A DNA stretch of 64,000 nt from Acholeplasmataceae bacterium (GTDB taxonomy: Bacteria > Bacillota_I > Bacilli_A > Acholeplasmatales > Acholeplasmataceae), in assembly GCA_965657915.1 (NCBI GenBank), contig CBFHPN010000006.1, forward strand, positions 3,057 to 67,056. Reading direction: 5' to 3'. Numbering within the stretch: the first letter of the stretch is position 1; each line of letters starts with the position of its first letter. Under the pieces are notes generated by a model, which saw only the letters and a program-made list of their open reading frames with translations, was not told the origin of the DNA and ran no database searches. Below are positions 4,924 through 35,567 of this stretch, piece by piece. A program made the translations under genes and the position numbers.

Positions 4924-4955
4924 ACTCTCTTCCTCTTTTCTTTGTTTTTTTAACA

Positions 4956-5027: not shown

Positions 5028-5160
5028 CCGTAAGTATTTCTTACAGTCCCATAATTCAACTATGCCTAATTGAATTATTCGGCGATGATTACCTTTCCAA
5101 TTTTTCTAAGAATGCCTTCTCCAAATTGTACTTATTTACACCGCAGCCTCTAATGCTCTT
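5028..5160 (-). promoter_or_regulatory. lysine riboswitch (L-box) aptamer
   Basis: The minus-strand RNA UUAGAGGCUGCGG..AAGUAC..UUUGGAGAAGG..GGAAAGGUAAUCAUCGCCGAAU..UGGGACUGUAAGAAA matches block for block the B. subtilis lysC L-box as I recall it (AGAGGUGCG, AGUA, UUGGAGA, GAAAGG..CGCCGAA, CUGUCAAGAAA). A TATAAT sits at 5181..5176 on the minus strand. Confidence 0.8.
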
Positions 5161-8700: not shown

Positions 8701-8747
8701 ATTTTCGTGAAAGTTACGTATGTTTTTATAATTACATGGAGGCATTT

Positions 8748-10902: not shown

Positions 10903-10913
10903 AGGAGAAAGAC

Positions 10914-11483
10914 ATGTTTGATTTATTATTAGATTCAATACTAAGTAGTAATATTGCACTAACCTTTATTTTGGGGATGTGTCCACTCATTGCGATTTCT
11001 ACAAATGTCAAAAATGCTAGAGGGATGGGAATTGCAGTTGTCTTAGTTGTGACATTAACAGCGATGATCAATTGGCCAATCTTCCAGTTATTAAAAACAA
11101 CAAATACAGAACAAGTAATGTTACTTGCATTCATTATTACAATTGCAGCAACCGTTCAAATCTTAGAAATATTAATGGAAAAATTCTTACCACAACTATA
11201 TAACGCATTTGGTATTTACTTACCACTCATTACTGTGAACTGTGTCGTTCTTGCAGTGTCACAATTCTTTGTGAATAGAGATTATAATTTTGTTGAGACA
11301 ACAACATTTGCGTTTGGTAGTGGTGTTGGTTGGTTACTTGCGATTGTATTAGTTGCTTCACTTAGAGAAAAATTAGCAGTATATGGTGATTTACCTAAAG
11401 GGTTACGAGGAAAAGCAATTGTATTTTTAATTTTAGGAATTTTATCACTCGCATTTATTGGATTTAGAGGATTATCATTCTAA
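10914..11483 (+). CDS. nqrE: NqrE/RnfA family membrane subunit
   Basis: Conserved Cys pair (ILGMCPLIAIS, ITVNCVVLAVS). 189 aa with 6 TM segments. Confidence 0.8.
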   Translation: MFDLLLDSILSSNIALTFILGMCPLIAISTNVKNARGMGIAVVLVVTLTAMINWPIFQLLKTTNTEQVMLLAFIITIAATVQILEILMEKFLPQLYNAFGIYLPLITVNCVVLAVSQFFVNRDYNFVETTTFAFGSGVGWLLAIVLVASLREKLAVYGDLPKGLRGKAIVFLILGILSLAFIGFRGLSF

Positions 11484-11505
11484 TGCTTAAGGAGGAAAAC
11501 AACAT

Positions 11506-13568: not shown

Positions 13569-14433
13569 TTTAGTAAAAAGAAATATGATCAATTACTTCT
13601 ATGATAAAACATCAATCTTTTTTAGTATGTTAAGTGTCTTTCTACTTATTCTTGTTTATGTCTTATTTTTAGGTCAACTTCAAGTGAATACTGTCATTGA
13701 AGAAGTCGGTGATATTGATGGAATCAGTGGACTTATTAATAGTTGGTTGGTTGCTGGTCTAATCGTTACCTCTTCAGTCACGGTTCCTATGGCGACCATG
13801 AGTGACATTGTTACAGATAGAGAAAACAAGGTCTTCCAAGATTTTTATATTGCACCAATCAAACGATCAGCGATCGTCTTTGCATATCTTATCTCGTCAG
13901 TAATTATTGGTGTGATGATGGCAACACTTACTTTCTTATTAGGTATGATTTACGTTGGGATCAGCTCAGGTATTTGGATTTCTGTATTTTCTATATTTCA
14001 GATGTTTATCGTCATTATCTTATCATCAACGTTATTTGCAAGTTTAAGTTTTGTTGTCTTATCTTTTGTTAAAACAACATCAGCTGCAGGCACGATTAAT
14101 ACATTAATCGGAACGATGATTGGTTTTTTTGCAGGGATTTATGTTCCATTTGGTGCTTTTAATAGTGCGTTATTACGTCAAATATTGGAAGTCAATCCAG
14201 CAGCTCAAGTGGTCACATTATTACGATCCATTATGATGACACCTTATTTAGAGATTGTATTTGAAGGTGCACCAGTATCAAGTTTAGAGGGATATAAAGA
14301 AGCGTATGGTGTCACAACCACATTTTTCGGTAATTCTATTTCAGGAGTTACCATTGGACTTTTCATCATTGGATGGATTATAATTTTCATAACGATAGGA
14401 ATTACTAGACTTAAAGCATATAAGGAGATTTAA
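13552..14433 (+). CDS. ABC-2 type transporter permease
   Basis: ORF track 13543..14433. GTG 13543, ATG 13546 and ATG 13552 are all possible starts; 13552 has the best spacing from AAAGGTGA. 6-TM permease overlapping the ATPase gene. Confidence 0.75.
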   Translation: MNVIYNLVKRNMINYFYDKTSIFFSMLSVFLLILVYVLFLGQLQVNTVIEEVGDIDGISGLINSWLVAGLIVTSSVTVPMATMSDIVTDRENKVFQDFYIAPIKRSAIVFAYLISSVIIGVMMATLTFLLGMIYVGISSGIWISVFSIFQMFIVIILSSTLFASLSFVVLSFVKTTSAAGTINTLIGTMIGFFAGIYVPFGAFNSALLRQILEVNPAAQVVTLLRSIMMTPYLEIVFEGAPVSSLEGYKEAYGVTTTFFGNSISGVTIGLFIIGWIIIFITIGITRLKAYKEI

Positions 14434-15779
14434 TGGACGTAATATTTAAAGCTCAGCGCTCTTTTTATCTGACGCAAGTAACAAAATCTTTTGAATTTAG
14501 ATATCAACAACTCGATAAATTAAAAAGTGCTGTCAAACAAAATCAAGATGATATTATTAAAGCACTTTATAAAGACTTACATAAATCAACGTTTGAGGCA
14601 TATGTAACTGAAATTGGATATATTTTAAAATCGATTACTTTTTTTCAAAAACATTTAAAGTCATGGATGAAAATAAAGAAGGTTAAAACACCTTCTTTTC
14701 AACTATTCACAACATCATACATACAGCCAGAACCCAAAGGACAAGTCTTAATTATTGGCCCATATAATTATCCATTTCAACTTGTTATTGAACCATTAAT
14801 AGGTGCAATCGCTGCAGGTAATACCGTGATGATCAAGCCAAGTGAATTTACACCAAATGTCGCAAATATCATTGAGAAAATCATCAAGGAAACATTTGAT
14901 GAAAATTATATTAAAGTCATTCAAGGTGGCATTGAAGTCAATCAAGCACTTCTAGAATTACCGTTTAATCATATCTTTTTTACAGGATCAACCAACGTTG
15001 GCCAAATCATCTATGAAAAAGCTGCAAAAAAACTAATCCCTGTGACATTAGAACTTGGAGGAAAAAGTCCTACGATTGTCGATGAAACAGCGCATCTTAA
15101 AGTAACAGCGCGACGCATTATTTATGGTAAGTTTTTAAATGCTGGTCAAACGTGTATCGCACCAGATTATATCTATGTTCAAAAGTCCATTCAAAAAGCA
15201 TTTGAAAATGTCTTACTCGAGACATTATCAGAATTTTATCCTGATTATGAATCAATGACACATGTTGTATCTGATCAACATGTGGAAAGATTAAAAAAAT
15301 TAATCGATAAGAAAAAAGTGATTCATGGAGGAAACATTACAGATAGACATATTGAACCAATCATCATGAGCAATGTTACGTGGGAAGATAACGTGATGCA
15401 AAATGAGATTTTCGGTCCTATTTTACCAATTTTAACATTTGAAACATTAGAAGAAGTGATCCAAATATTACATGAAAAAGATCAACCACTCGCCTTGTAT
15501 ATGTTTTCTACCAATAAGAAAAACATCAAACGTATCTTCAGTGAAATCTCTTTTGGAAATGGCGCGATAAACGATACCATTATGCAAGTCGTTAATCCAC
15601 ATATTCCATTTGGAGGTATTGGCTCAAGTGGTATTGGTCAATACCATGGAAAAGCTTCATTCGAAGTGTTTTCACACATGAAATCATATGTCAATCATTC
15701 AGTAAAAATTGATCCACCGATTGCGTATCCACCCTATACAAAGAAAAAAGAGAAACTCATTAAAAAAATACTAAAATAA
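14433..15779 (+). CDS. aldehyde dehydrogenase, class 3-like (NAD(P)+)
   Basis: TAATG overlap with the permease gene. ELGGKSP (catalytic Glu) and NAGQTCIAPDY (catalytic Cys). 448 aa. Confidence 0.85.
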   Translation: MDVIFKAQRSFYLTQVTKSFEFRYQQLDKLKSAVKQNQDDIIKALYKDLHKSTFEAYVTEIGYILKSITFFQKHLKSWMKIKKVKTPSFQLFTTSYIQPEPKGQVLIIGPYNYPFQLVIEPLIGAIAAGNTVMIKPSEFTPNVANIIEKIIKETFDENYIKVIQGGIEVNQALLELPFNHIFFTGSTNVGQIIYEKAAKKLIPVTLELGGKSPTIVDETAHLKVTARRIIYGKFLNAGQTCIAPDYIYVQKSIQKAFENVLLETLSEFYPDYESMTHVVSDQHVERLKKLIDKKKVIHGGNITDRHIEPIIMSNVTWEDNVMQNEIFGPILPILTFETLEEVIQILHEKDQPLALYMFSTNKKNIKRIFSEISFGNGAINDTIMQVVNPHIPFGGIGSSGIGQYHGKASFEVFSHMKSYVNHSVKIDPPIAYPPYTKKKEKLIKKILK

Positions 15780-15811: not shown

Positions 15812-16741
15812 TGTTAGATGAATATGTGCTTCTTTTAATATTGTCGCAGATTTTTTAAGTAATACTTTTTCTTCATCATTGAGCTTAAGTTTAACAATAT
15901 GATGGATACCGTCTTTGTTGACGACTGCTGGAAGTCCGATAAAAACTTTGTCACAATCATATTCGTCTTCATTGAGTACAGATAGTGGGAGAATCGCATT
16001 TTCATTATTAAGTATTGCAACAACAATTCTATTGAGTGCCATGCCAATACCATAATAGGTAGCTTGTTTCCTTGAAATGATTTCATAAGCTGCATGTCTC
16101 ACATCATCTTCAATAATCTTTAAATCTTCAAATTTCAAAGTATCGATGGTTTCAATGACATCGCCAATTGGTTTTGATCCAACATTCGCATTTGACCAGC
16201 TTACAAATTCACTATCACCGTGTTCACCTAAAATGTACGCATGAACATTTCTTACGTCAATATGAATCCGTTTGGCGATTTCATAACGAAGTCTTGCGGT
16301 ATCAAGAGAAGTTCCACTACCGATGACTTTTGATTTAGGTAAACCAGATGCTTCATAAACCACATACGTTAAAATATCAACTGGATTGGTTGCAACTAAG
16401 AAAATCCCGTTAAAACCAGAGGCCATCACCTCTTTGACAACGGATTTCATAATCGCTGCATTGCGTTTTAATAAATCAAGTCTTGTTTCACCAGGTTTTT
16501 GATTGACACCTGCAGTGATGACAACGATATCTGCATCTTTACAGTCACGATATTCTCCTGCATAAATATCCATTTTTCTAGGCGCAAATACCAAACCATG
16601 ATTTAAATCCATGGCTTCTCCGACTGCCTTTTCTTTATTGACATCAATTAAGACAAGCGTTTCAAAGGTGCCTTTATTGAGTGCACTATAGGCAAAACTC
16701 ATCCCGACAAATCCTGTTCCTATTAAGACAACTTTACTCAT
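15809..16741 (-). CDS. ldh: L-lactate dehydrogenase
   Basis: VLIGTGFVGMS Rossmann motif; NQKPGETRLDL (Gln, lactate-specific position); GEHGDSE. Confidence 0.9.
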   Translation of the reverse strand: MSKVVLIGTGFVGMSFAYSALNKGTFETLVLIDVNKEKAVGEAMDLNHGLVFAPRKMDIYAGEYRDCKDADIVVITAGVNQKPGETRLDLLKRNAAIMKSVVKEVMASGFNGIFLVATNPVDILTYVVYEASGLPKSKVIGSGTSLDTARLRYEIAKRIHIDVRNVHAYILGEHGDSEFVSWSNANVGSKPIGDVIETIDTLKFEDLKIIEDDVRHAAYEIISRKQATYYGIGMALNRIVVAILNNENAILPLSVLNEDEYDCDKVFIGLPAVVNKDGIHHIVKLKLNDEEKVLLKKSATILKEAHIHLT

Positions 16742-18219
16742 TTTAAACTCCTCAAGACATGTTTTTCTACTTGCTGACCAGATAATACAACCATTGGCAT
16801 ACCACCGCCAGGATTCGTTGAGCCTCCTACAAAAAATAAGTTATTATAAAACGTAGAGGTTTTAGGAACTTTAAACCCTAAATTCATCTTACGATTCGCC
16901 TCAACACCGTATATCGAACCCTGATTCGAATAATATTTTTGTTGAATGATTTCAGGCGTCCATAATTCTTTAGAAACAATGTGCTTTCTTAAATCGGTAA
17001 GACCCATACGCTCTAATTTTGTTAGGACAGCTTCTTCAAACTGATCATATTCTTCTTTCGTGAAGGCTTGATCGCCATTCATGACAGAAATATGAGGTAA
17101 GATTTTAATAATTTCATGACCTTCAGGACCTTGAGATGGGTCTGTTTTCATTGGTGCGACTAAATAAATGGTTGGATCACCTGAAAGTTTATGTTTTTTA
17201 AAGATGTTTTCAAAGTTTTGTTTTAAATCTTCAGAAAAGAAGAAGTTGTGGTGTGCGAGTTGAGGATACTGTTTATCAACACCTAGATGTAAAGCAAATC
17301 CTGAACATGCTGGACCATATTTTTTCTTTAAAGAGGATAGTTTTTGATCGGATTCTTTCGTAATTTTTTCATAAAAAGGAATAGCTTCCATGTTGGATAC
17401 AACGGCATCTACTTTTAAGGTTGAACCATCACTTAATGTCACAGAAACAATTTTTCCTTTTTGTTTATCAACATGTAACACTTCAGTATTCGTTTTCACA
17501 GTAATGTTGAGTTCTGACATCAGTTTTTGCATGCCAATAGAGGCTTGATACATACCACCCTCTACATACCATAATCCAAATTTCCACTGGATATAAGGAA
17601 GTAAATTCATGACTGCTGGTGCGTCATAAGGGTTCGATCCAACGTATTTAATAAAATAGTTCATAATATCGACTAAATAAGGGTTCGAAATATATTTTCT
17701 TATCCCTTCATCCATAGTTCTAAAATAATCACTATCTTTAAATATTTTTAAAGGGTTATAATACTTTAAAGTTTGAAGAATCGTTTCTGCTTGGTTTTTA
17801 AATAAAATATCATTGGTAAAATCATATAATTTTTCAGTATATTTGTAAAAAGCTTGTAGTTCTTGATAATCTTTTTCAGAAATATTATCTAACTCTTTCA
17901 TGCCTTCCAAGGTATCTGTTAAATCTATAACATTCCCATCTTCAAAAAAGTTTCTCCAATGTGGAGCTACTGAAACAAGTTTAAAGTAATCCTCTCTTTT
18001 TTTACCGTGCATTTCAAATAATGCATCAAAATATTGAGGCATTGTAAAGATAGAAGGTCCTAAATCAAAAGAAAACCCGTCTTGTTCAAGCACGTTTAAT
18101 TTTCCACCTAAATGTGGATTTTTTTCAATCAATGTAATATGAAAATCTTTATGTTTTGCAAGTGTAATTGCGGCACTCATCCCGCCTAATCCACCACCAA
18201 TGATGACAATTTCTTTCAT
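16738..18219 (-). CDS. crtP: phytoene-desaturase-family oxidase, CrtP-like (4,4'-diaponeurosporene oxygenase type)
   Basis: IIGGGLGGMSAA FAD motif. YFIKYVGSNPYDAPAV, GLWYVEGG, YPQLAHHNFFF, MGLTDLRKHI and GGGMPMVVLSGQQV closely track S. aureus CrtP as I recall it. Confidence 0.7.
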   Translation of the reverse strand: MKEIVIIGGGLGGMSAAITLAKHKDFHITLIEKNPHLGGKLNVLEQDGFSFDLGPSIFTMPQYFDALFEMHGKKREDYFKLVSVAPHWRNFFEDGNVIDLTDTLEGMKELDNISEKDYQELQAFYKYTEKLYDFTNDILFKNQAETILQTLKYYNPLKIFKDSDYFRTMDEGIRKYISNPYLVDIMNYFIKYVGSNPYDAPAVMNLLPYIQWKFGLWYVEGGMYQASIGMQKLMSELNITVKTNTEVLHVDKQKGKIVSVTLSDGSTLKVDAVVSNMEAIPFYEKITKESDQKLSSLKKKYGPACSGFALHLGVDKQYPQLAHHNFFFSEDLKQNFENIFKKHKLSGDPTIYLVAPMKTDPSQGPEGHEIIKILPHISVMNGDQAFTKEEYDQFEEAVLTKLERMGLTDLRKHIVSKELWTPEIIQQKYYSNQGSIYGVEANRKMNLGFKVPKTSTFYNNLFFVGGSTNPGGGMPMVVLSGQQVEKHVLRSLK

Positions 18220-18227
18220 GCTTCCTC

Positions 18228-18815
18228 CTAATAAATGAATGGTATAAATTTGTATCTAGACTTTTTCCAATGTTTATAAGTCTGACCTAATGATGACTCT
18301 AAAATGTGTTCTTCAAGGGTCATTCTGTGATTTAATATATAACCCATCAGTAAATATGCGATAGGCGTTAATATGATATTACTAAAAAATAAAGGGACAC
18401 TTGTTGATAAAAGAAATAAACCTAAATATAACGGATGTCTTAACATTTTATAAGGTCCACTTGAAATGAGTTCATGGGTCTCTGATACGGCAACATTTCT
18501 CGTGAAAAAACGTCCTAAATGAATGATTGAAACATATCGTAACAATAAACCAAGGATATATAATGTGATGCCGATATAGTTGAAGATGTTTTGTGTGAAT
18601 TGATTGTCAAGTGTCCCAATTTGAAGCCAACCGAGAAAAAAGTTAAGTAGAATAATAAGTAAAATAAATTGTAAGATAAAGAAAAAACTTTTTTTCTCTT
18701 GTTTGGATTGTTTTTTTAGATGAGATGGAAAAATGACAAACTCAGCAATCCATAATATGGTCACAACATAAAAAAGATAATATGGCCATGCATTGACGAA
18801 AAAAAATGATAACAT
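18228..18815 (-). CDS. ICMT/PEMT-fold membrane methyltransferase family protein
   Basis: 5-TM protein of 195 aa. The C-terminal GPYKMLRHPLYLG is typical of isoprenylcysteine carboxyl methyltransferase-like proteins. Confidence 0.6.
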   Translation of the reverse strand: MLSFFFVNAWPYYLFYVVTILWIAEFVIFPSHLKKQSKQEKKSFFFILQFILLIILLNFFLGWLQIGTLDNQFTQNIFNYIGITLYILGLLLRYVSIIHLGRFFTRNVAVSETHELISSGPYKMLRHPLYLGLFLLSTSVPLFFSNIILTPIAYLLMGYILNHRMTLEEHILESSLGQTYKHWKKSRYKFIPFIY

Positions 18816-23803: not shown

Positions 23804-23831
23804 AAAAACGTTGCTTAGGCAACGTTTTTCT
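23804..23831. terminator. bidirectional intrinsic terminator
   Basis: aaaaaa-acgttgc-ttag-gcaacgt-ttttt between convergent genes. Confidence 0.75.
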
Positions 23832-24567
23832 TTTGAAATTTATAAAGTAACACATACATTAAACTCATCACAAATGCTCCTAGAAGCGTTGTTAAAGATA
23901 AATAAACAAAATTAAATTTAAAAAAATCAAATAAAATAAGTTCATGTCCCCATTCAAAAAATAATTCAAGAGGGGTTCCATTTTCAGGCTTTAAGCTATA
24001 AAAATAATTTGCATATTGACCCGATATGAGATATAAAATATTATTCATTATTATTGATAATATAAATAATATAAAGACAACAATAAACGTTTTTTTAAGA
24101 TAATGAAAATCAAGTTTGATAAAGCCTTTAAAATAAGCCCATAGTGGTAATGTCACTAAAATCATGTGTCCGAAAATATATGCAAAACCTCTAAAGGTTA
24201 GTATAGTGTCATAGTGACTTAAGCTATTTGCGAAAATAATAGAAACAAATGCAGCTGGCAAATTCAAAATAAGTGCAAAATTAAACCAAATTTGTTGTTT
24301 TTTTAAGAAAGCAATCAATAATACAAAATTCGCAAAATGACATATTTGTAAAGGTAATAACTCGATATCAAAATTAAGACCATTAGTAATAAATATTTCT
24401 AAATTTCTTGAAAACAAAATGACAATTGCAACAATACTTAACCAAATGCCAATTTTAGTATTGGTTTCATCATTAGTGTTTTTTGTAAAATATAATAAAA
24501 TAAATAGTGAGATAAACGGAGACACTACAAATAGTAAATGACCGATAGAATACATTTCAAATGTCAT
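23815..24567 (-). CDS. polytopic membrane protein, possibly YwaF/TIGR02206-like (function unknown)
   Basis: 250 aa with about 7 TM segments and an LPLQICHFANF motif. Family assignment is from memory only. Confidence 0.35.
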   Translation of the reverse strand: MTFEMYSIGHLLFVVSPFISLFILLYFTKNTNDETNTKIGIWLSIVAIVILFSRNLEIFITNGLNFDIELLPLQICHFANFVLLIAFLKKQQIWFNFALILNLPAAFVSIIFANSLSHYDTILTFRGFAYIFGHMILVTLPLWAYFKGFIKLDFHYLKKTFIVVFILFILSIIMNNILYLISGQYANYFYSLKPENGTPLELFFEWGHELILFDFFKFNFVYLSLTTLLGAFVMSLMYVLLYKFQKKNVA

Positions 24568-24647: not shown

Positions 24648-26108
24648 CTAAGATATTTTTTCAATGTGTAGTTTTGAGTTAATTAAGTGGCTTTCTTTAG
24701 TATCTTCATCCATTTTATTTAATAAGTTAACCATCATGGACATTCTAGGGTTAGATTTTAAAGTATCTTTATGTTTGTCTATGAAATTCCAATACAAACC
24801 GTTAAACGGACAAGCCTTTTCACCAGTTTTTATGGTTGGATCGTATTTACAACCCTCACAATAGTTACTCATTTTCTTTATATAAGACGCACCAGATATA
24901 TATGGTTTTGTTGACATTAAGCCACCATCAGCATATAACCCCATTCCCATAACATTAGGTGTGACAACCCAATCAAATGAATCAATATATAGGCTATTAA
25001 ACCAATCATTGACTTCAATCGGGTTGACACCTATAAGATTCGCATAATTGGATAAAATCATAAGTCTTTGAATATGATGGTTATATCCATTTTCTAAAGT
25101 TTCTTCAATGGTATGTGATAAACAGGATAAATCTGTATTTGCACTCCAATAAAAAGCAGGTAAAGAGTGGTGATGTTTTAAAGCGTTTTTGTCATGATAA
25201 TCCGGTGTATTTAAATACACGCCACGGATATATTCCCGCCAACCAAGAACTTGTCTGATGAAGCCTTCAGCAGGTTGAATTTCACAGACGCCATCATGAT
25301 ACGCTTGTTCGACTGCTTTAATCACATCCATGGGACTAAGTAGACCTAAATTCAAAGAAGAAGAAATAAGCGCATGCGACATGAAAGGCTCATGTTTAAT
25401 CATGACATCTTGATGATCACCAAACGTTGAAAGTCTGTAGTCAATAAAATGTTTGAGTGCTTGATTTGCTTGAGCGTGAGAAACAGGATAAATAAACGTA
25501 TCCAAATTACCTGGATGATCACTAAATAAAGCGTTTGTCCAATCAATTGATTGTTGCGTTAAAACATCGATTTCAAAGGTTAAAGGTTCATGAAAACGCA
25601 ATCCCTTTTTAAAGGGTTTCCTATTATCCCCGTCAAAGGAAAATTTACCGCCAATAGGTAAATCATGATGCATTAAAATTTGATGTTTGTGTCGAAGCTT
25701 TCTGTATATTGTATCCATTTTCCATGGTTGTTTAGAAAGTAAAACTTTCCATTCATCTCTCGATACGATAAATAATGGATCATCAACATATGTAACATTC
25801 GTTAATGGTTTTATAAAGTTAAAATCAGCGTAATCATTAGGTAAAAATACATACGTTTGTGCGTGATTGTATGTCTCATAGAATGTATTTAAATCTTCAA
25901 TCAAAAGGTAACTCAAAGGATATGTTTTTTGATATGTGTCAATAAAATGTAGTATTGCACTATGATGAAGTGCAATTCTTTTTTTATGATATAGATGTCT
26001 CTTATAAAAAGATAGATGCTCAAATACAATAATTTCATCAAATTCAATATTGAGATGATTAATATAGGTTTGATTCAGTTGAAATGGAAACAATAATAAA
26101 GTTTTCAT
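24648..26108 (-). CDS. FeS-cluster cryptochrome/photolyase family protein (FeS-BCP; CryB/PhrB (6-4)-photolyase-like)
   Basis: HHIQRLMILSNYANL..VNDWF..YIDSFDWVVTPNVMGM..ADGG..KPYISGASYIKKMSNYCEGCKYD...KACPFNGLYWNF parallels R. sphaeroides CryB as I recall it. Four Cys (SCLSH, CEGC, ACPF) fit the 4Fe-4S ligands. Confidence 0.8.
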   Translation of the reverse strand: MKTLLLFPFQLNQTYINHLNIEFDEIIVFEHLSFYKRHLYHKKRIALHHSAILHFIDTYQKTYPLSYLLIEDLNTFYETYNHAQTYVFLPNDYADFNFIKPLTNVTYVDDPLFIVSRDEWKVLLSKQPWKMDTIYRKLRHKHQILMHHDLPIGGKFSFDGDNRKPFKKGLRFHEPLTFEIDVLTQQSIDWTNALFSDHPGNLDTFIYPVSHAQANQALKHFIDYRLSTFGDHQDVMIKHEPFMSHALISSSLNLGLLSPMDVIKAVEQAYHDGVCEIQPAEGFIRQVLGWREYIRGVYLNTPDYHDKNALKHHHSLPAFYWSANTDLSCLSHTIEETLENGYNHHIQRLMILSNYANLIGVNPIEVNDWFNSLYIDSFDWVVTPNVMGMGLYADGGLMSTKPYISGASYIKKMSNYCEGCKYDPTIKTGEKACPFNGLYWNFIDKHKDTLKSNPRMSMMVNLLNKMDEDTKESHLINSKLHIEKIS

Positions 26109-27463
26109 GAGCGGCTCACTTTTTTTACAGGTTTAGGATAGTTTTGAATACCATATAAAATACGTTCTTTTTCTGAGAATTCACTTATTTTATATTTTAA
26201 TGGATTCGGAACATCTTTTATTTCGGGTAAAAAAACATCTAAAAATTGACAGTTTGTATCATAACGTTCTCCTTGCGTGATGTAGTTAAACATTCTATTT
26301 TCTCGAGGATCATTTCCTAGCCCTGCGTTATAGAGCCAATTGAGGGTATTAGAAGAAACGTCATAATCAATCAAATAAGATTCAAAAAATGCAGCACCGA
26401 TACGCCAATCTTGATTTAAAAATTTCGTTAAAAAATTAGCAACATTTTGTCTTCCTCTATTCGACATATATCCAGTTTGAACAAGTTGCCTCATATTTGC
26501 ATCAATGAGTGGATACCCTGTTTTTCCCTCTTTCCATGCTGTAATAAAGTATTGATTAGGAGAAATATGATGTGATTGTGACAACCCTGCTTGATTGAAA
26601 ATACGATTGTGATATTTTTTGTGAGTAAAATAAAAGTAATCACGCCATAGTAACTCAAAATAAATCCAATAAGTCGAATCATTTTTAACATAAGTTGCTT
26701 CATACTTTTTAACCTCATTCATAATACGATTAACAGATAATGCACCCATTGAGAGATAAGCTGAAAATTTCGTGGAATCATTAAAATTCAACATACCATT
26801 ACGAGTTTCTTTGTATGTTTTTGCAAGTTGATCATTAAATAAATAATTTGTTAAATGGTTTAATGCTGCAGTTTCACCAGGTTGGATGTAGTGATTGATT
26901 TGTAAAATATTCAGATCATCTAAATTCGGAATATCGCTTTCTATAGATATTTTTGGTTGTTGAACTAAAGTGTCACACTCTTTAAAATTAACAGGAAATC
27001 GTTCGATTTTATGTCTAAATTGTGTAAAAACAAATGGCAAATCTTCTATTGAAAAAGGCAGCATATGTGTTTTGTAAAGTGGTTTCATTTCCTCATGATA
27101 GGTCGGTATGTTTAAGGTGGAAATGAAATCATATCTTTTTCTTTCCTCCTCACCAGGTAGTTTTTCAAAATATATAGATTCTATATTAAGTTCTCTAATC
27201 AATTCTTTTAATATAAAAGCAAAGTCCCCTTTTTTTACAAGAAGCGGAATATTCAATGTATTCAGTTGCTGATTTAAATCGAGCAATGTATCATATAAAA
27301 AAGACAACCAAGGATCACTTTTCTTTTTGAACCCAAAATTATTGAGATTAAACCAAGCTTCATCAAATACAAAAAGTCCCACTACTGAACCACTTTCCAG
27401 TGCTTTTTTCAGCAAAGGTTGATCATGGATTCGCAAATCATTTTGAAAGAGGTAAAGGTTCAT
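26105..27463 (-). CDS. DASH-type cryptochrome
   Basis: MNLYLFQNDLRIHDQPLL N-terminus; TGYPLIDANMRQL; GYMSNRGRQNVANFL; DYDVSSNTLNW. ATGA-coupled to the downstream FeS-BCP gene. Confidence 0.8.
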   Translation of the reverse strand: MNLYLFQNDLRIHDQPLLKKALESGSVVGLFVFDEAWFNLNNFGFKKKSDPWLSFLYDTLLDLNQQLNTLNIPLLVKKGDFAFILKELIRELNIESIYFEKLPGEEERKRYDFISTLNIPTYHEEMKPLYKTHMLPFSIEDLPFVFTQFRHKIERFPVNFKECDTLVQQPKISIESDIPNLDDLNILQINHYIQPGETAALNHLTNYLFNDQLAKTYKETRNGMLNFNDSTKFSAYLSMGALSVNRIMNEVKKYEATYVKNDSTYWIYFELLWRDYFYFTHKKYHNRIFNQAGLSQSHHISPNQYFITAWKEGKTGYPLIDANMRQLVQTGYMSNRGRQNVANFLTKFLNQDWRIGAAFFESYLIDYDVSSNTLNWLYNAGLGNDPRENRMFNYITQGERYDTNCQFLDVFLPEIKDVPNPLKYKISEFSEKERILYGIQNYPKPVKKVSRS

Positions 27464-27489: not shown

Positions 27490-28641
27490 ATGATAGTAAA
27501 ACACGATACAGATCCATTACAAGTTGTATTGGTTCATCAACCAGGTAAAGAAATTGAACAACTCATGCCAGGTAATCTTACAAGATTACTTTTTGATGAT
27601 GTTCCTTTTTTAGATCAAGCCATTCAAGAACATCAAACCATGACGGATTACCTAATACAACATCATGTTCAAGTTCATGATATTACCGAACTTGCTATTG
27701 AAGTCATACAAGATGATCGTCTTAAAGATGAACTTATTAATATCATCATACACGATTTAAAGCAACAATCACAATCTGTGGTAGAACGTGTGAGAAAAAA
27801 ACTTAAAGCATCTTCTTTAGAATCGATTGTGAATACGTATGTTGGGGGACTGACGTATATGGAATTAGATTTAGATAATAAAAAGACGCTTTTTATTTTA
27901 GATCCGCTTCCCAATTTATTATTTCAAAGAGATCCAATGTTTATGATTCATGACATATGCGTGATTAGTCATATGAACATGGAAGCAAGAAGAAGAGAAG
28001 CAATGCTATCAAAGTTTATCATTAAACATCACCCACTATTTATGCATCAACGCATGATTGACATGTCTGATCAAAAACATTCTATTGAAGGTGGGGATAT
28101 CATACTATTGGATGATTATATCTTGATTGGTATTTCAGAACGGACAACAAAAGAAGCTGCAATAGAATTAATCAAACGATTAAAAGCATTTGATTTATCA
28201 TATCAAACGATACTCATAGAATTACCAAATCATCGCAGTTATATGCATTTAGATACTGTCATCACCCCCATTAAAAAAGATGTATTTGTCTATGATAAAC
28301 ATGCATTTGAAAATAGCCTCTTGTATCAATTAGTCAACGATGAGATGGAAATCATTCATACGTCATTTGAGGTATTGATGAAGCAACAATTTGGTGATAT
28401 TTCATTTATTGAAGTAGGGGATGGTGATCAAATTTATGCAAAGAGAGAACAGTGGAATGATGCTGCAAATACATTAGCCATCGCGCCTAATCATATTATT
28501 TGTTACGATAGAAATGTGATTACAAATGAACTATTTAAATCACATGGAGTAACGTACTTTTCTATGCCGTCTTCTGAGTTATCTAGAGGACGTGGTGGTC
28601 CGCATTGTATGACCATGCCACTTTATAGAAAAAGCCTCTAA
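27490..28641 (+). CDS. arcA: arginine deiminase
   Basis: ORF track 27400..28641, but its first 30 codons are antisense to cry-DASH. From ATG 27490: VVLVHQPGKEIEQLMPGNLTRLLFDDVPFLDQAIQEH (ArcA N-terminus). C-terminal GGPHCMTMPL holds the catalytic Cys. Confidence 0.85.
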   Translation: MIVKHDTDPLQVVLVHQPGKEIEQLMPGNLTRLLFDDVPFLDQAIQEHQTMTDYLIQHHVQVHDITELAIEVIQDDRLKDELINIIIHDLKQQSQSVVERVRKKLKASSLESIVNTYVGGLTYMELDLDNKKTLFILDPLPNLLFQRDPMFMIHDICVISHMNMEARRREAMLSKFIIKHHPLFMHQRMIDMSDQKHSIEGGDIILLDDYILIGISERTTKEAAIELIKRLKAFDLSYQTILIELPNHRSYMHLDTVITPIKKDVFVYDKHAFENSLLYQLVNDEMEIIHTSFEVLMKQQFGDISFIEVGDGDQIYAKREQWNDAANTLAIAPNHIICYDRNVITNELFKSHGVTYFSMPSSELSRGRGGPHCMTMPLYRKSL

Positions 28642-29606
28642 CGAGGCTTTAGCATGATTTCAATCCCAGAAGCAACGCCTTCATCTTCATAGATGAGGGT
28701 GTTTTTTTTATATAGTTTTAAATGAATGTTTCCAGATAGACCTTCTTTGATGGTTTCATTCATTTGACCTAATCGAGGAGAAGGTAAATCTTTATAGTCT
28801 GATGTTGTCGCGGTCACAACTAATTTTAAAGTGCGTTTTTTGAGTGTTATTGAAACTGAAGTATCATCATAAGTAATATGTTTAACAGCACTTAAATTAT
28901 AAGTCGCAAAACGGTACTCTCTGCCTTCTATTACTAAAACACAGATTAATCCTTTAAATTTAAAAAATAAAAAAGGGATGGTTGCATAAGATAACATAAA
29001 TGATGTTTTAGGATCTTTAAAATGATTCGATTGCATCCAAGTATAACTACTAGGAAAAGATGTACCCCAGTCTTTTTCGATATAACCCTTTCCATGATTA
29101 AAGGAAATGGCTTCTTTCTCAAGTAAAATTGAACCTTTTACTTGATGAGACATCGAGACGATGCCGTGATAGGTTTCCATAAAACCTAAATATCCAAACG
29201 GTCCCATAATGGATGGAAAAATTAAGCTTTTTTTAATTGGCGTAAGGTGCTGATTTTCTAAATGAACTTGCAAATCTAATTCTTCATTATCGATTGAAAA
29301 AAACATGGATTCACTAGAAAATATGTTGTGTGCAATTTGAATCTTAAATATCTTTGGATGGAAAGAGAAGTCTTTAATATCATATTTGAAATAATATGTT
29401 TTCAATGTTTCATTCTCTTTTGTTCGATCAGAAATAAAAACTTGAATAAAGGCATGTGTATCATGTTTATTTAAACTAATTCCTGGTATAAAGGCAAAGG
29501 TATGAGACAAATTTTTTGTTACATACTTAAAATACCAACCTTCAAAGTAGTTTTTTTTCTTTAAATGTCCTTGAAATATTTCGGGGTGAAATGTCTTATA
29601 AAACAT
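28638..29606 (-). CDS. tocopherol-cyclase family (PF14249-like) protein
   Basis: YFEGWYFKYV and GYIEKDWGTSFPSSYTWMQSN parallel the plant VTE1 motifs FFEGWYFRV and SEKNWGGGFPRKWFWVQCN (recalled). 322 aa, apparently soluble. Confidence 0.65.
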   Translation of the reverse strand: MFYKTFHPEIFQGHLKKKNYFEGWYFKYVTKNLSHTFAFIPGISLNKHDTHAFIQVFISDRTKENETLKTYYFKYDIKDFSFHPKIFKIQIAHNIFSSESMFFSIDNEELDLQVHLENQHLTPIKKSLIFPSIMGPFGYLGFMETYHGIVSMSHQVKGSILLEKEAISFNHGKGYIEKDWGTSFPSSYTWMQSNHFKDPKTSFMLSYATIPFLFFKFKGLICVLVIEGREYRFATYNLSAVKHITYDDTSVSITLKKRTLKLVVTATTSDYKDLPSPRLGQMNETIKEGLSGNIHLKLYKKNTLIYEDEGVASGIEIMLKPR

Positions 29607-29615
29607 GATTTTCTC

Positions 29616-29645
29616 CTAAAAAAAAGACTAAGTTTCCTTAGTCTT
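29616..29645 (-). terminator. intrinsic terminator immediately after the heliorhodopsin gene
   Basis: Minus-strand RNA agacuaag-gaaa-cuuagucu followed by U8. Confidence 0.75.
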
Positions 29646-29654
29646 TAGTATAGC
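29646..29654 (-). promoter_or_regulatory. extended -10 (TGCTATACT, minus strand) for the tocopherol-cyclase-like gene, abutting the terminator
   Basis: The reverse complement of agtatagca is TGCTATACT. The predicted start site lies inside the first hairpin arm. Confidence 0.4.
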
Positions 29655-29659
29655 ATATC

Positions 29660-30487
29660 TTATGAAGGTTGGAATGCTCCAAATAGAACTAGCCATGTAA
29701 GTAATGTTTTAGCGACAAGAGATAAGATGACATAACCTCTTTCTCCATATAAGTAATCTTTAAATTTACCTATTCCAGCATATTGTAAGTACATGTTTAC
29801 TGGGAATGTATTAAATGCAATAAAGTAAGTTGCTAAGATTGCCCAAACGAATCCAGGAACATTTTCTAAATTAGGGTTCACACCAATATAGAATGCGATG
29901 GCAACCCATGGTGCAAGACCTACGATTGAACCAAAGATAAATGGTAGCCAATTGACTTTTTTACCAACTTTAGACTCACCTTGGTTAAGTAATTCCATAT
30001 CTAAACCAAAGAAGTTCATCGCTGCATTTGCAAGTGCGATTAGTGCGAATACAGCAACATCTCTCACACCAAATAATGATGAAATTAAGATAATCATGAG
30101 TGATGAAGATAATGCATATTCATACCATCTAAATTTGTTAATACCAACTTTTAAACCTGCACGGTATTCATCTTTCCAAACAAATGCAATTAAAAAGTGG
30201 AAGATACCAGAAATAAGTAAGAAACTCGCTGTCATTTGTAAGAACGGTAATTCAAATAAGGTATCAGTGTTCGTTAAGATTAATCCTTCTCCTTGAACAA
30301 ATTCTAAGTAATTCCCAATCACTGGGATGGTAAATGCACCTTGACTTGTCATACTTGGGTAAATGAAGAATGCAAAAATCATCATAAATAACCCTTGAAC
30401 TAAATGGACAACACCCATTTTTTTATTAAATGAGATGAGTTTATCAATTTTCACATCAACATTTAATGTTTGAACTTCTGTAGACAT
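29660..30487 (-). CDS. heliorhodopsin
   Basis: ORF track 29660..30541. I prefer ATG 30487 after AAAGGAGA. Motifs VVHLVQG, IFHFLIAF, FRWYEYALSSSLMIILIS and LYGERGYVILSLVAKTLLTW match heliorhodopsin 48C12 (VFHLLQM, LFHFIVS, FRWVEYSLSSSVMIVLIA, LRGERAYIVLSLVAKSALAW). This includes the Schiff-base Lys, the Glu counterion and both His positions. Confidence 0.85.
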   Translation of the reverse strand: MSTEVQTLNVDVKIDKLISFNKKMGVVHLVQGLFMMIFAFFIYPSMTSQGAFTIPVIGNYLEFVQGEGLILTNTDTLFELPFLQMTASFLLISGIFHFLIAFVWKDEYRAGLKVGINKFRWYEYALSSSLMIILISSLFGVRDVAVFALIALANAAMNFFGLDMELLNQGESKVGKKVNWLPFIFGSIVGLAPWVAIAFYIGVNPNLENVPGFVWAILATYFIAFNTFPVNMYLQYAGIGKFKDYLYGERGYVILSLVAKTLLTWLVLFGAFQPS

Positions 30488-30519
30488 AATAATCTCCTTT
30501 ATATTATGATTATGCCTTG

Positions 30520-30528
30520 AGTATATCA
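30520..30528 (-). promoter_or_regulatory. extended -10 (TGATATACT, minus strand) for the heliorhodopsin gene
   Basis: The reverse complement of agtatatca is TGATATACT, about 33 nt upstream of ATG 30487. Confidence 0.4.
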
Positions 30529-30564
30529 CACAATCTATCACGATGTTAGAGAATCTTTTTGTTA

Positions 30565-30573: not shown

Positions 30574-30594
30574 ATGGAAGAAAATAAGGTGAAT

Positions 30595-32085
30595 ATGAAA
30601 AAAGTCATTATCATAGGTGCTGGCACAGCTGGGCTATCTTCAGCAATTAGACTTCAATCAAAAGGATTCCAAGTTGAAATCTATGAAAAAAACGACCGTG
30701 TTGGCGGTCGTATGTTTCAACTTAAAGACAAAGGGTTTACCTTTGATTATGGTCCGACCATTACGATGTTACCTGATGAATATAAAGATGTATTTATCGC
30801 TTCAGGTGTGAATCCAGATGATTATTTACAGATGACAGCACTTGATCCACTTTATAAATTATACTTTAGAGATGGAACATCATTTCAAGTATCTTCAAAT
30901 TTAAATCAATTGATGAAAGAACTGGAAAAATTCGGTGAAGATGAAGCATATGGATATTTATCATATTTATCTGATGTATACGGACGCTATATCATTGCAA
31001 AAAAACATTTTTTAGATGTTTCATATCGAAGAAAAAGAGATTTTTTTAATTTAAAAACACCTTATCATGGGTACCGTTTAAAAACACTTAACAATGCATA
31101 TGATTCTATTTCAAGATTTGTTAAAAATGAAAAACTAAGACAAGCATTATCGTTTCAAACGTTATATATTGGTGTTTCTCCATTTCAAGGTCCATCCATT
31201 TATACCATCATCCCGATGATAGAATTACTTTATGGGATTCATTACATTAAGGGTGGGATGTATCAAATGGCTACTGCCATGGAAAAACGTTTTTTAGAGC
31301 TTGGTGGAAAAATTCATTTGAATCAATCTGTTGATGAAATCATGATTAAAGATCAAATTGCACAAGGGATAAGAATTAATGATGATATCAAAGAAGCAGA
31401 TATCATTTTAACGAATGCAGATTTTCCTTGGGCTGTTGAAAACTTAATTAAAGAACCTAAAAATAGAGGGAAATTTAAAGATAAAAAAGTTAAAAAAATG
31501 ACATATTCATCTTCAGTATTCATTATGTATATGGGACTTGATAAAAAGTATCCCACGGATATCCATTCATTAAGATTTGCTGCAGATTTCAAGAAAAATA
31601 TTCATGATTTATTTGAGTCAAAAATACCTGAAGACCCATCATTTTATTTATATTCACCCTCTCAAATTGATGAAAGTGTTGCACCTAAAGGAAAAGAAAT
31701 TTTATATGTTTTAGTACCTGTTCCTAATACACAAGATAAACATGTCAACTGGGATGAAGCACAGGTGACGTATTATCAATCTAAAATTTTATCAATGATC
31801 GAACAAATCCCAACGTTTCATGATATTAGAGAACATATTGAAGTCATGCATGTCTCAACGCCAAATACATGGGAAGAAAAATTTAATTTAAATCACGGTG
31901 CAACGTTTGGACTTCGTCCTACCTTGAGCCAAAGTTTATACTTTAGACCGCAAGCAACATTAAAACCTTTAAAAAATGTTTACTTCACAGGATCATCAAC
32001 GCATCCTGGTCCTGGCGTTCCAATTGTTTTAAAATCAGCAAAACTTGCTGTCAATGAAATACTAAAGGATCATCCGCATGAATGA
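30595..32085 (+). CDS. crtN: 4,4'-diapophytoene desaturase-like (CrtN type) phytoene desaturase family protein
   Basis: ORF track 30574..32085. I prefer ATG 30595 (MKKVIIIGAGTAGL). GGRMFQLKDKGFTFDYGPTITMLPDEYKDVF, FQTLYIGVSPFQGPSIYTIIPMIE and GSSTHPGPGVPIVLKSAKL track S. aureus CrtN as recalled. Confidence 0.8.
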   Translation: MKKVIIIGAGTAGLSSAIRLQSKGFQVEIYEKNDRVGGRMFQLKDKGFTFDYGPTITMLPDEYKDVFIASGVNPDDYLQMTALDPLYKLYFRDGTSFQVSSNLNQLMKELEKFGEDEAYGYLSYLSDVYGRYIIAKKHFLDVSYRRKRDFFNLKTPYHGYRLKTLNNAYDSISRFVKNEKLRQALSFQTLYIGVSPFQGPSIYTIIPMIELLYGIHYIKGGMYQMATAMEKRFLELGGKIHLNQSVDEIMIKDQIAQGIRINDDIKEADIILTNADFPWAVENLIKEPKNRGKFKDKKVKKMTYSSSVFIMYMGLDKKYPTDIHSLRFAADFKKNIHDLFESKIPEDPSFYLYSPSQIDESVAPKGKEILYVLVPVPNTQDKHVNWDEAQVTYYQSKILSMIEQIPTFHDIREHIEVMHVSTPNTWEEKFNLNHGATFGLRPTLSQSLYFRPQATLKPLKNVYFTGSSTHPGPGVPIVLKSAKLAVNEILKDHPHE

Positions 32086-34386: not shown

Positions 34387-34409
34387 GACCTCAAGGTCTT
34401 ATTTTTTTA
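34378..34409. terminator. bidirectional intrinsic terminator
   Basis: aaaaaa-taagacc-tcaa-ggtctta-ttttttt between convergent genes. Confidence 0.75.
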
Positions 34410-35178
34410 ATTTTGGGAAGAAAATGGGTGTATGCTTAGCATATTCTTGATACAGTGCGTTATCTTGATATCTTTTTTCAAGTAAGGGTACACCAGATAC
34501 ATATCTAAGAAGATATCCCATTATCAGTGTGCCAATAATTGCAAAAGCATAATGTAAATCAAAACTATAAAACATAATGACAAAATAACTCATCCAAATC
34601 ATAAAGTCACCAAAGTAGTTCGGATGTCTGGTGTAAGCCCATAACCCTTTATCCATGATTTTCCCCTTATTATTTGGGTTCGACTTAAAGCGCTTAAGTT
34701 GAGCATCTGATACACTTTCAAAGATAAAGCCAATGATAAATAAGACAATCCCTAACCCTAACACCACATAATGAAACCATTCTAAACCTTCTTTGACATA
34801 AAAGACACTTTGAAGGGGCAATGAAATTACAAATGCAAGTAATATCTGGAGATAAAAGACTTTAAAGTAAGCATGAACATAAGGAATATTTCCCCATTTT
34901 TTTCTCATGTTGACATAACGGTAATCTTCAGGTTTAGACCAGTTACGTAACAATAAATAGTAAGTGAGTCTTAATCCCCATAAAGTAACAAAACTTAGTA
35001 TCGAAATAGAAGCGAGGGTAACTACGTCTGTATATAGAAAGACGGTCCAAGTGATCACAACAAAGCTTAGTCCCCAAGCAATGTCAATCAGTCCTAGATT
35101 TTTCTTGATGACACTGATTAAAAACCAAACATGTAAATAAATAAAAAGAACACTTGCTAAAACAATCAAATGTGTCAT
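34399..35178 (-). CDS. DUF1295 family membrane protein (steroid-reductase/ICMT-like fold)
   Basis: ORF track 34399..35238. ATG 35178 forms an ATGA overlap with the upstream gene. GLWAYTRHPNYFGDFMIW motif. Confidence 0.65.
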   Translation of the reverse strand: MTHLIVLASVLFIYLHVWFLISVIKKNLGLIDIAWGLSFVVITWTVFLYTDVVTLASISILSFVTLWGLRLTYYLLLRNWSKPEDYRYVNMRKKWGNIPYVHAYFKVFYLQILLAFVISLPLQSVFYVKEGLEWFHYVVLGLGIVLFIIGFIFESVSDAQLKRFKSNPNNKGKIMDKGLWAYTRHPNYFGDFMIWMSYFVIMFYSFDLHYAFAIIGTLIMGYLLRYVSGVPLLEKRYQDNALYQEYAKHTPIFFPKLKK

Positions 35179-35567
35179 AAAAGATGACCAATTAAATAGG
35201 TGAGTGTGGAGACAGAAAATCCTAAAAATGTTCCCCATGTGATATCTATGAGTGTGACTTTAATCGGCCACTTATCAAGGGTTGCTAAGTTTGTTAAGTC
35301 GTATGTTGCATACGTAATGAAACCATAAAGTCCACCATAAAGCATGGCATGATTCAGTGACATAGCATCTAAGGCTGGAACAATTGCAAAAATCATTAAA
35401 AAGATAATATACAAAACATAAAAAACAAGCGCAGCATACCAATTTGGTTTTTTCGCTAAAATATAACCAATTTGTGTTTGGTACATCTTTTTAGCAAATA
35501 GACCTAACCATAAAATGTCAATGATAAAAAAGATGATAAATGCAATGAGAAAAATTAATATGTTCAT
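35175..35567 (-). CDS. DUF2177 family membrane protein
   Basis: FIIDILWLGLFAKKMY...YATYDLTNLATLDKWP, the characteristic DUF2177 pattern as recalled. 130 aa with 4 TM segments. Confidence 0.6.
   Translation of the reverse strand: MNILIFLIAFIIFFIIDILWLGLFAKKMYQTQIGYILAKKPNWYAALVFYVLYIIFLMIFAIVPALDAMSLNHAMLYGGLYGFITYATYDLTNLATLDKWPIKVTLIDITWGTFLGFSVSTLTYLIGHLL

Follow-up and report, generated by a model that had tools for sequence, protein, structure and literature searches.

The minus strand of a 64,000-nt stretch of Acholeplasmataceae bacterium DNA (contig CBFHPN010000006.1; the whole stretch is called the window below) carries a gene for a 275-aa protein that, judged by its sequence, is virtually certain to be a bona fide heliorhodopsin (HeR). 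The gene is embedded among photolyase and carotenoid genes, as the original prediction for this locus had claimed and as the profile and PDB matches of the flanking open reading frames (ORFs) confirm. We consider it probable that the best overall explanation is a regulatory HeR within a light/ultraviolet (UV)-protection island. The HeR gene, its predicted signals and the same-strand gene that follows it are located in the window as follows.

29660..30487, minus strand: HeR coding sequence, 275 aa (ATG 30487..30485, TAA 29662..29660)
30493..30500, minus strand: Shine-Dalgarno (SD) sequence AAAGGAGA, ending 5 nt (ATTAT) before the ATG, with its GGAG core 6 nt away
30520..30549, minus strand: predicted HeR promoter, extended -10 TGATATACT (30528..30520) and -35-like CTAACA (30549..30544) with an 18-nt spacer
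29647..29655, minus strand: second extended -10-like element TGCTATACT, immediately upstream of the hairpin
29618..29646, minus strand: intrinsic-terminator-like hairpin AAAGACUAAG-GAAA-CUUAGUCUUU (29646..29623) followed by Us, U8 in total, between the HeR stop and the next SD
28638..29606, minus strand: tocopherol-cyclase-family (TocCyc-like) gene, 322 aa, with SD AGGAG at 29617..29613 and a PF14249 match of 60.8 bits

The limits of the HeR gene had been given exactly in the original prediction; its strand, left out there, is minus. Two HeR profile models match the ORF far above their cutoffs, namely Pfam PF18761 (Heliorhodopsin; E=9.9e-81, 271.1 bits against a cutoff of 26.7, profile positions 2-241 of 242) and the NCBIfam HeR equivalog NF038020 (251.9 bits against a cutoff of 100). 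The only solved structures matched by sequence are HeRs, including 9vfc (1.3e-51), TaHeR (6is6, 9e-44) and 48C12 (6su3, 1.2e-40), with 4e-40 as the weakest end of the range. The alignment with 48C12 that had been made by eye holds over the full length at 39.5% identity. The exact protein sequence is already in public databases, where a 72,780-bp metagenome-derived contig at NCBI encodes it, and a 94% relative was automatically named ‘heliorhodopsin HeR’. A longer ORF from GTG 30541 (293 aa) was rejected, as it overlaps the conserved promoter and the relatives align only from MSTEV... onwards. A 132-aa antisense ORF within the HeR gene (29898-30296, plus strand) is probably a by-product of coding-strand composition.

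The residues previously picked out as functional map onto their 48C12 counterparts. The two conserved His are H28 in VVHLVQG (48C12 H23) and H97 in IFHFLIAF (H80), the Glu counterion of the third transmembrane helix (TM3) is E123 in FRWYEYAL (E107), and the TM7 segment SLVAKT holds the Schiff-base K260 (K241) together with S256 (S237) in an SxxxK motif. In the HMMER alignment the 48C12 chain carries its native numbering, and residues map directly. We examined these columns in an alignment of 76 sequences (74 diverse HeRs, the window protein and 48C12). The Lys, Glu and His columns are all conserved; the Schiff-base Lys is present in 75 of the 76 sequences, the remaining one being a truncated fragment. 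Equivalents of 48C12 H23, H80, R104, W105, E107, Y108, N207, Q216, Y217, S237 and K241 are invariant, barring gaps in truncated fragments. Retinal would be expected on K260, opposite E123.

The AlphaFold2 model of the protein, built from a shallow alignment and of moderate confidence (predicted local distance difference test score, pLDDT, 70.5), has seven helices (10-46, 82-103, 120-138, 144-167, 180-203, 212-236 and 249-271) and strands at 53-81 that form a long β-hairpin in the first extracellular loop (ECL1) between TM1 and TM2, as in HeR structures. Its top Foldseek matches are TaHeR (TM-scores 0.76/0.82) and 48C12 (0.73/0.78), while type-1 rhodopsins reach a TMq of at most 0.57, or up to 0.69 if normalised by the shorter target. 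The loops on the N-terminal side hold 14 Lys and Arg residues against one on the opposite side, so the positive-inside rule predicts a cytoplasmic N-terminus, the inverted orientation that defines the family.

Comparison with related loci (designated by L numbers) sets the HeR gene apart from most of its neighbours. In L001, L004-L007 and L058, HeR amino-acid identity is 77-95% where most neighbours are at 38-72% (for example, 80% against 41-55% in L006 and 87% against 38-50% in L004); the exceptions are CrtI (91-92%) and the TocCyc-like protein (81%) in L001. At four-fold degenerate sites, HeR (27-47% identical) is as saturated as the neighbours (15-48%), on which ground we rejected recent horizontal transfer as the cause of HeR conservation. 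High protein identity at saturated synonymous sites therefore points to purifying selection, which by these comparisons is exceptionally strong on HeR. Constraint extends to the cytoplasmic side: residues of the second intracellular loop (ICL2; K173, G175, K176, K177, N179, W180) and of ICL3 (G240, K241, F242, K243, D244, Y245) are invariant in the clade. The charged residues of the cytoplasmic loops are K105/R109/K113/K118, K173/K176/K177 and K241/K243/R250; K105 and R109 are nearly invariant in the clade, and K113, K118 and R250 are not conserved.

The earlier suggestion of an acholeplasma-like Mollicute host is supported at family level by the submitters' labels and the synteny of close relatives. 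The nearest genome records labelled Acholeplasmataceae have HeR proteins 95% (L001) and 87% (L004) identical to that of the window, and two records labelled ‘Bacillota’ (L002, L003) are at 94% at the protein level and 86-87% at the DNA level. Izemoplasmatales HeRs come next (74-78%), and those of Carnobacteriaceae (Alkalibacterium) are 48-51% identical. Two metagenome scaffolds match the window at 98.5% identity, and at least 120 metagenome clusters have at least 79% identity to its HeR. TGA serves as a stop in 13 of 61 genes (code 11), GC content is 33.2% and coding density 93%. The same HeR-TocCyc cassette is found in the cultured, cell-wall-less Peloplasma aerotolerans, which came from a mud volcano and grows anaerobically; its description mentions neither rhodopsin nor photolyase. 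An Acholeplasmataceae-type wall-less Mollicute is thus the host that sequence comparison supports. HeRs have been reported as restricted to monoderms (PMC8612252), and the wall-less relatives of the host agree with the monoderm bias to which the original prediction referred. Two other assemblies hold two HeR paralogues within 10 kb, namely an Acholeplasmatales metagenome-assembled genome (MAG) (L017, 1-630 and 8819-9592) and a ‘Tenericutes’ MAG (L053, 6161-6985 and 9950-10798), with ~77-81% and ~46-49% identity to the window HeR.

The good SD and the extended -10 element that had been claimed for the HeR gene are both conserved in relatives. AGGAG or GGAG stands at the same position in 12 related loci, and TGnTATAnT lies ~30-35 nt upstream of the HeR ATG in nearly all of them. 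The promoter is supported by this conservation and not by a generic promoter scan, which was not enriched in the AT-rich window (11 found against 12.8 expected) and is uninformative here. Back-to-back with it, the divergent crtI gene has its own extended -10 element, TGGTAAAAT at 30565-30573 (plus strand), likewise conserved in relatives together with the surroundings of the crtI start. The mechanically assigned crtI start, ATG 30574, overlaps this element; because of the conserved promoter placement, the true start is probably ATG 30595 (MKKVIIIGAG..., with SD AAGGTG at 30586-30591). No light-responsive regulator was found in the island, the sole regulator seen in the window being PadR (909-1304), and a search for a shared operator near the island returned only sigma-70-type extended -10 elements in common.

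Downstream, the original prediction had described a strong hairpin plus U8 terminator. The hairpin and the U8 are real, but moderately strong is the better term, as only three of the ten base pairs of the stem are G-C. It has a GAAA loop, begins 13 nt past the HeR stop and folds at -14.4 kcal/mol (z = -3.72; none of 200 shuffles was as stable). A hairpin with a T-run occupies the same position in 12 of 12 related loci with wholly different stem sequences (AAAGACTAAG, AAGACCGG, GCCAGG, AAAGCTAG and AAGGGCTAC among them), a case of compensatory turnover. Since the stems differ completely at a fixed position, it is on the structure itself that selection acts, which argues for a real HeR 3' end.

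The gene had also been called monocistronic. Its own promoter and the terminator-like hairpin speak for this, but monocistrony is not established, because every related Acholeplasmataceae-type locus has the TocCyc-like gene next in line on that strand (53 nt downstream in the window). The SD of that gene abuts the U-run of the hairpin and leaves no space for a promoter between them. The element TGCTATACT just ahead of the hairpin is a possible nested promoter for it, and RNA begun ~7 nt past this element would be missing the greater part of the 5' hairpin arm and so would not be terminated there. The exact sequence TGNTATACT has three matches in the 64 kb, all intergenic and correctly oriented: the HeR promoter, the pre-hairpin element and a -10 element with the same motif as the HeR promoter (TGTTATACT), 11 nt upstream of a flavin mononucleotide (FMN) riboswitch. 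This number is not a statistical enrichment (2.2 expected window-wide). The pre-hairpin element is kept as TGnTAyAmT in the subclade of the window and is lacking in L059-L062, where the partner gene would therefore need read-through. Two readings of the transcription unit are compatible with these signals: HeR may be monocistronic, with a nested promoter for the next gene, or the two genes may form an operon that an internal terminator attenuates.

The product of the TocCyc-like gene matches PF14249 above its cutoff of 26.6 bits, only in its C-terminal half (profile positions 147-333), and an NCBIfam search gave no match. Its relatives are named ‘tocopherol cyclase family protein’ by NCBI and JGI, and the motifs YFEGWY(F/Y)K and EKDWG are conserved in it. 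The AlphaFold2 model (pLDDT 91.9) is a double-β-barrel of the AttH/CrtC-like/kievitone-hydratase fold that matches AttH-like proteins, kievitone hydratase, the decalin cyclases Fsa2, Phm7 and CghA, and 25-phosphosteroid lyase, with 2ich and 7a0q among the matched structures; these fold relatives all act on lipophilic isoprenoid or polyketide substrates.

The order HeR then TocCyc-like gene, on the same strand and with a gap of ~43-78 nt, is shared by the window and 25 related loci (L001-L007, L056-L062 and 11 from metagenomes). The pair is retained where all else has changed (L005, L007, L059, L060), and it spans two HeR subclades (phmmer scores of ~450-596 and ~250-285 bits). In all five sampled enzyme homologues at 50-59% identity, HeR is immediately upstream and a class-II-type photolyase is divergent. 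By number, the loci with the pair outside L001-L007 and L056-L062 are L063, L065-67, L071-72, L081-85 and L132. From the enzyme side, we scanned 80 metagenome loci. HeR is adjacent in 10 of the 17 judgeable loci of the close subclade, plus one with a frameshifted gene, and the other seven have no adjacent HeR; no HeR, crtI or crtB was seen near the ~36 more distant homologues. On these counts we rejected the TocCyc-like protein as a universal or exclusive HeR partner. In L075 (2090-4631) and L076 (2089-4630), a class II-type photolyase and the TocCyc-like gene diverge directly from each other and HeR is missing, an arrangement in which the enzyme keeps its link to the photolyase without HeR. 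HeRs of Izemoplasmatales, Alkalibacterium and Clostridia have no TocCyc-like neighbour. By its gene neighbourhoods, the TocCyc-like protein is a light-island enzyme with a lineage-specific and very tight link to HeR.

In three loci with the pair, genes for a DUF92 membrane protein and a protein of ~218-233 aa lie beside the photolyase (L058 1164-2662, L060 3422-4876 and L062 1101-2595). In L058 and L062 they separate crtB from the photolyase, whereas in L060, a locus devoid of crt genes, they separate the photolyase from HeR; the ~218-233-aa protein has a weak CTP_transf_1 match in L062 only. The window has neither gene. We take the two to belong to the families of the plant prenol kinases VTE6 and VTE5, respectively, in which case three ‘tocopherol-pathway-like’ families would cluster around HeR.

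The remaining genes of the island and the other recognisable features of the window are listed below.

30565/30595..32085, plus strand: crtI (phytoene desaturase family), divergent from HeR; TIGR02734, 433 bits
32078..32995, plus strand: crtB/crtM-type phytoene (squalene/phytoene) synthase; PF00494, 188.9 bits
33010..34386, plus strand: class II cyclobutane pyrimidine dimer (CPD) photolyase; TIGR00591, 463 bits, full length; last gene of the crtI-crtB-phr operon
34399..35238, minus strand: DUF1295 membrane protein (profile match)
35175..35567, minus strand: DUF2177 membrane protein (profile match)
27490..28641, plus strand: arginine deiminase; PF02274, 277.9 bits; convergent with the TocCyc-like gene, 3' ends overlapping by 4 nt
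26105..27463, minus strand: Cry-DASH; TIGR02765, 428 bits, above cutoff
24648..26108, minus strand: FeS-BCP/(6-4)-photolyase-type protein; PhrB/CryB PDB matches, 1e-108
23815..24567, minus strand: TMEM164-family membrane protein; PF14808
20235..23803, plus strand: riboflavin operon ribD-E-BA-H, with the FMN riboswitch at 20254-20368; abuts the photolyase/cryptochrome cluster
18228..18815: ICMT-type membrane methyltransferase, directly followed by the second CrtI-family oxidase
16738..18219: second CrtI-family oxidase, nearest CrtD-type 1-hydroxycarotenoid desaturases, below cutoff
14433..15779: class-3-like aldehyde dehydrogenase, near the second CrtI-family oxidase
8736..12588, plus strand: Rnf/Nqr-type cluster (RnfD/NqrB-like, FMN-binding subunit, two Rnf-Nqr subunits, NqrF-like ferredoxin reductase)
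4995..5160, minus strand: lysine riboswitch upstream of an amino-acid ATP-binding cassette (ABC) transporter (binding protein, permease and ATPase, 2613..4977, minus strand)

The best PDB matches of the photolyase are the class II CPD photolyases 8oet, 2xry and 3umv (1e-84 to 1e-77), and L001-4, L006, L058-L063, L065-67, L071-72, L081 and L132 likewise have a class-II-type photolyase transcribed divergently from HeR. For the crtB/crtM-type synthase, all NCBIfam equivalogs were below their cutoffs, and it is not assigned to the C40 or the C30 type. DUF2177 and DUF1295 genes recur near HeR (L002, L003, L005-7, L021, L038, L081, L085). On the other side, the Cry-DASH, FeS-BCP and TMEM164 genes are co-directional with HeR and the TocCyc-like gene, and follow the latter directly in L002 and L062. 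In these two loci the TocCyc-like, Cry-DASH and FeS-BCP genes are contiguous and the arginine deiminase is absent at this place; it is present in L001, L003, L006 and L056-58, the product in relatives being 383 aa, and by this distribution it is a recurrent, dispensable insert in the island. A terminator-like hairpin after the arginine deiminase gene (28674-28703, plus strand) falls within the TocCyc-like coding region. Beside the riboflavin operon next door it may be noted that flavin and lumazine are photolyase cofactors. The genes at 14433-18815 suggest carotenoid tailing beyond CrtB/CrtI. Rnf has been reported in Acholeplasmatales, with which the Rnf/Nqr-type cluster is consistent. Three consecutive ORFs at 47852-50318 (minus strand; 204, 301 and 316 aa) have no match in Pfam, NCBIfam or PADLOC, nor have the unannotated ORFs searched elsewhere in the window, save for a generic ABC-ATPase similarity at 60265-61035.

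We propose that the HeR is a slow-photocycle, non-pumping rhodopsin expressed from its own promoter, and a regulatory or sensory role, rather than transport, is very likely on present analysis. Upon illumination, its positively charged cytoplasmic loops would bind a soluble, island-encoded protein and modulate it. The precedent is the HeR of Trichococcus flocculiformis (TfHeR), which binds and stimulates the class II CPD photolyase of its own operon via charged ICL residues, E97, R162 and K227 being needed for binding (PMC9769723); OcHeR likewise binds its partner through positively charged residues of ICL1-3. By analogy, the likeliest partner here would be the class II CPD photolyase, a tentative assignment that could well fall either way, and HeR binding would extend and boost photorepair. 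The three photolyase-family proteins, carotenoids, DUF2177/DUF1295 proteins and the cyclase-like enzyme would together form a light/UV-protection module, in which the hairpin probably either sets high HeR and low downstream expression or ends the HeR transcript while the nested promoter drives the next gene.

Several points weigh against this proposal. The photolyase is encoded on the opposite strand and is not in the HeR operon as in Trichococcus, and the HeR-TocCyc loci L005, L007 and L085 have no photolyase within reach. Because the TocCyc-like gene is invariably adjacent while the photolyase is not within reach in these three loci, the tightest genomic partner of HeR is not the photolyase. 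HeR and photolyase bind each other weakly according to published work (Kd about 22 uM; PMC9769723). The structural model is only of moderate confidence, and no retinal-forming enzyme that would account for the chromophore was found in the 64-kb window.

The strongest of the alternatives is that the true partner is the adjacent TocCyc-like enzyme, and that HeR light-switches the cyclisation or hydration of a lipophilic isoprenoid, such as the psi-end of a carotenoid or a prenyl-quinol that would become a chromanol, by which light would remodel or protect the membrane of an unwalled cell. We consider this possible, if rather unlikely. The same-strand pair found across two HeR subclades and outlasting every other neighbour speaks for it, as do the five of five sampled homologues with HeR upstream and the high-confidence model with its AttH-like, kievitone-hydratase and decalin-cyclase fold. 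A link between HeR and membrane-lipid remodelling has been hypothesised, with tocopherol cyclase among the recurrent neighbours (bioRxiv 10.1101/2021.02.16.431466), and the CrtD-like 1-hydroxycarotenoid desaturase homologue in the window would fit the product of a hydratase. However, the enzyme family is far larger than its HeR-linked subclade, as seen in the ~36 distant homologues without HeR, crtI or crtB; seven of the 17 close loci have no adjacent HeR, L075 and L076 pair the enzyme with a photolyase, and the conserved hairpin between the two genes argues against strict stoichiometric co-expression.

The same gene pair could bear on the source of retinal. Our search covered nearly all window ORFs of at least 110 aa (every ORF not nested in a longer one), and neither a lycopene cyclase, nor Blh/Brp, nor an RPE65-type carotenoid-cleavage oxygenase was found within the 64 kb; without these the nearby carotenoid genes do not amount to a retinal pathway. 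This absence would suit a cassette that itself supplies the chromophore, in which the TocCyc-like protein performs a ring-forming or end-modifying step on the acyclic carotene of CrtB/CrtI, on a blh-independent route to retinal or an analogue. Such a route has parallels: blh is rare in HeR-only genomes (bioRxiv 10.1101/2021.02.16.431466), surveys of HeR neighbours note that some unrecognised route to retinal is required, and in a blh-less, HeR-bearing actinobacterium a retinal pathway has been shown biochemically, its genes still being unidentified. The crtI and crtB genes adjoin HeR in about half of the HeR-TocCyc loci, and a cyclase/hydratase fold suits the protonation of isoprenoid double bonds. 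We nevertheless regard this explanation as improbable. The obligatory C15=C15' cleavage calls for an oxygenase, and the cassette has no linked candidate for one; crt genes are not nearby in L004, L005, L007, L059-L061 and L063-67, Izemoplasmatales HeRs have no such enzyme within 10 kb in spite of 74-78% identity, and the distant TocCyc-like homologues show no rhodopsin or crt linkage. The window covers 64 kb of the genome, and the canonical genes may lie elsewhere. Acholeplasmas are known to make carotenoids that function in their membranes, and these account for crtB and crtI without retinal.

Both ideas would merge if the HeR-hairpin-TocCyc pair were a dedicated two-component photo-module of Acholeplasmataceae, preserved as a unit while divergence reached saturation, either light-gating the enzyme or serving with CrtB/CrtI as the blh-independent chromophore route. 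We judge this quite unlikely; if true, it would provide a new class of HeR partner and a compact, culturable test system, Peloplasma aerotolerans DSM 112561.

That the protein works as a light-gated proton channel or pump, as some giant-virus HeRs do, is very improbable. Proton transport is reported for viral HeRs, and an ion flux driven by light could in principle be of use to a wall-less fermenter that has an Rnf/Nqr-like complex. However, the sequence groups with prokaryotic HeRs and has the full residue set of the non-transporting 48C12 and TaHeR, which are also its best structural matches; moreover, transport has been assigned to viral HeRs only, which lack conserved neighbours (PMC11109279), and the neighbourhood here is highly conserved. 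Finally, an apoprotein that never binds retinal in its host, or a decaying relic, would agree with the lack of a visible retinal biosynthesis gene in the window and with the anaerobic, little-light mud-volcano habitat of the cultured relative, but is scarcely credible in view of the strong purifying selection (the Lys and the pocket residues do not vary even though synonymous sites are saturated), the intact and conserved promoter, SD and terminator, the co-located three photolyase-family genes useful only in light, and the more than 120 closely related metagenome clusters.

The preferred explanation, a regulatory HeR in a light/UV-protection island, can be set against what is already known. 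The original prediction had called the context favourable for working out HeR function. The context is real, but HeR-photolyase coupling, carotenoid and photolyase genes flanking some HeRs, the DUF2177 association and the limitation to monoderms have all been published. Photolyase, tocopherol cyclase and DUF2177 are recurrent HeR neighbours (bioRxiv 10.1101/2021.02.16.431466), DUF2177 being one of two families that published work singles out as the most typical of HeR surroundings. Kim et al. 2024 distinguished ten neighbour groups that include photolyase and DUF2177 and do not include tocopherol cyclase (PMC11109279); the window locus fits their ‘photolyase’ and ‘DUF2177’ groups. By its gene content, the locus is therefore a textbook HeR in an already-described type of context. 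We found no paper dedicated to HeR in Acholeplasma, Izemoplasma or Tenericutes, and in the literature no description of the hairpin-separated HeR-TocCyc pair of Acholeplasmataceae or of its presence in a cultured strain.

The picture of HeR physiology is growing one case at a time, through partners such as glutamine synthetase, photolyase and ABC transporters. To this the present locus adds that HeRs of wall-less Mollicutes are among the most constrained genes of their neighbourhood, that their light island is very compact (three photolyase-family genes, crtI/crtB and DUF2177/DUF1295, with a riboflavin operon next door), and that their invariant same-strand neighbour in Acholeplasmataceae is a TocCyc-like enzyme, a culture-collection strain included. 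It also raises the questions of which island product HeR binds and where a small, blh-less genome obtains retinal.

Among characterised proteins, 48C12 (PDB 6su3, 6su4, 6uh3) has the same fold and signature residues as the window HeR, which differs by ~10 additional residues where TM1 ends and ECL1 starts (FAFFIYPSMTSQ), a longer ICL2 (GESKVGKK) and a Met in place of 48C12 Q213, as in TaHeR. The hosts belong to different phyla (Mycoplasmatota and Actinobacteria, respectively), and the gene neighbourhoods differ. TaHeR, from a Thermoplasmatales archaeon, is the best fold match and its E108 and K238 have conserved equivalents in the window HeR, whereas its host is archaeal and no conserved photolyase/cyclase cassette is known for it. 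The HeR of PDB 9vfc (317 aa), the best match by sequence among solved structures, is very similar to the window protein in ICL1/TM3 (GINxFRWYEYALSSSLMI) and in TM6/TM7, and differs in a longer N-terminus and a 9-residue insertion in ICL3. The partner gene shares its profile match and motifs with the VTE1 tocopherol cyclase family (PF14249) and differs in having a non-photosynthetic Mollicute as host. The closest functional parallel is TfHeR, likewise a HeR of a low-GC monoderm with positive cytoplasmic loops and a genetic link to a class II CPD photolyase. The TfHeR operon is reported to hold the photolyase and a DUF2238 gene, whereas in the window the photolyase is the third gene of the divergent crtI-crtB-phr operon and, unlike in TfHeR, the same-strand neighbour of HeR is the TocCyc-like gene.

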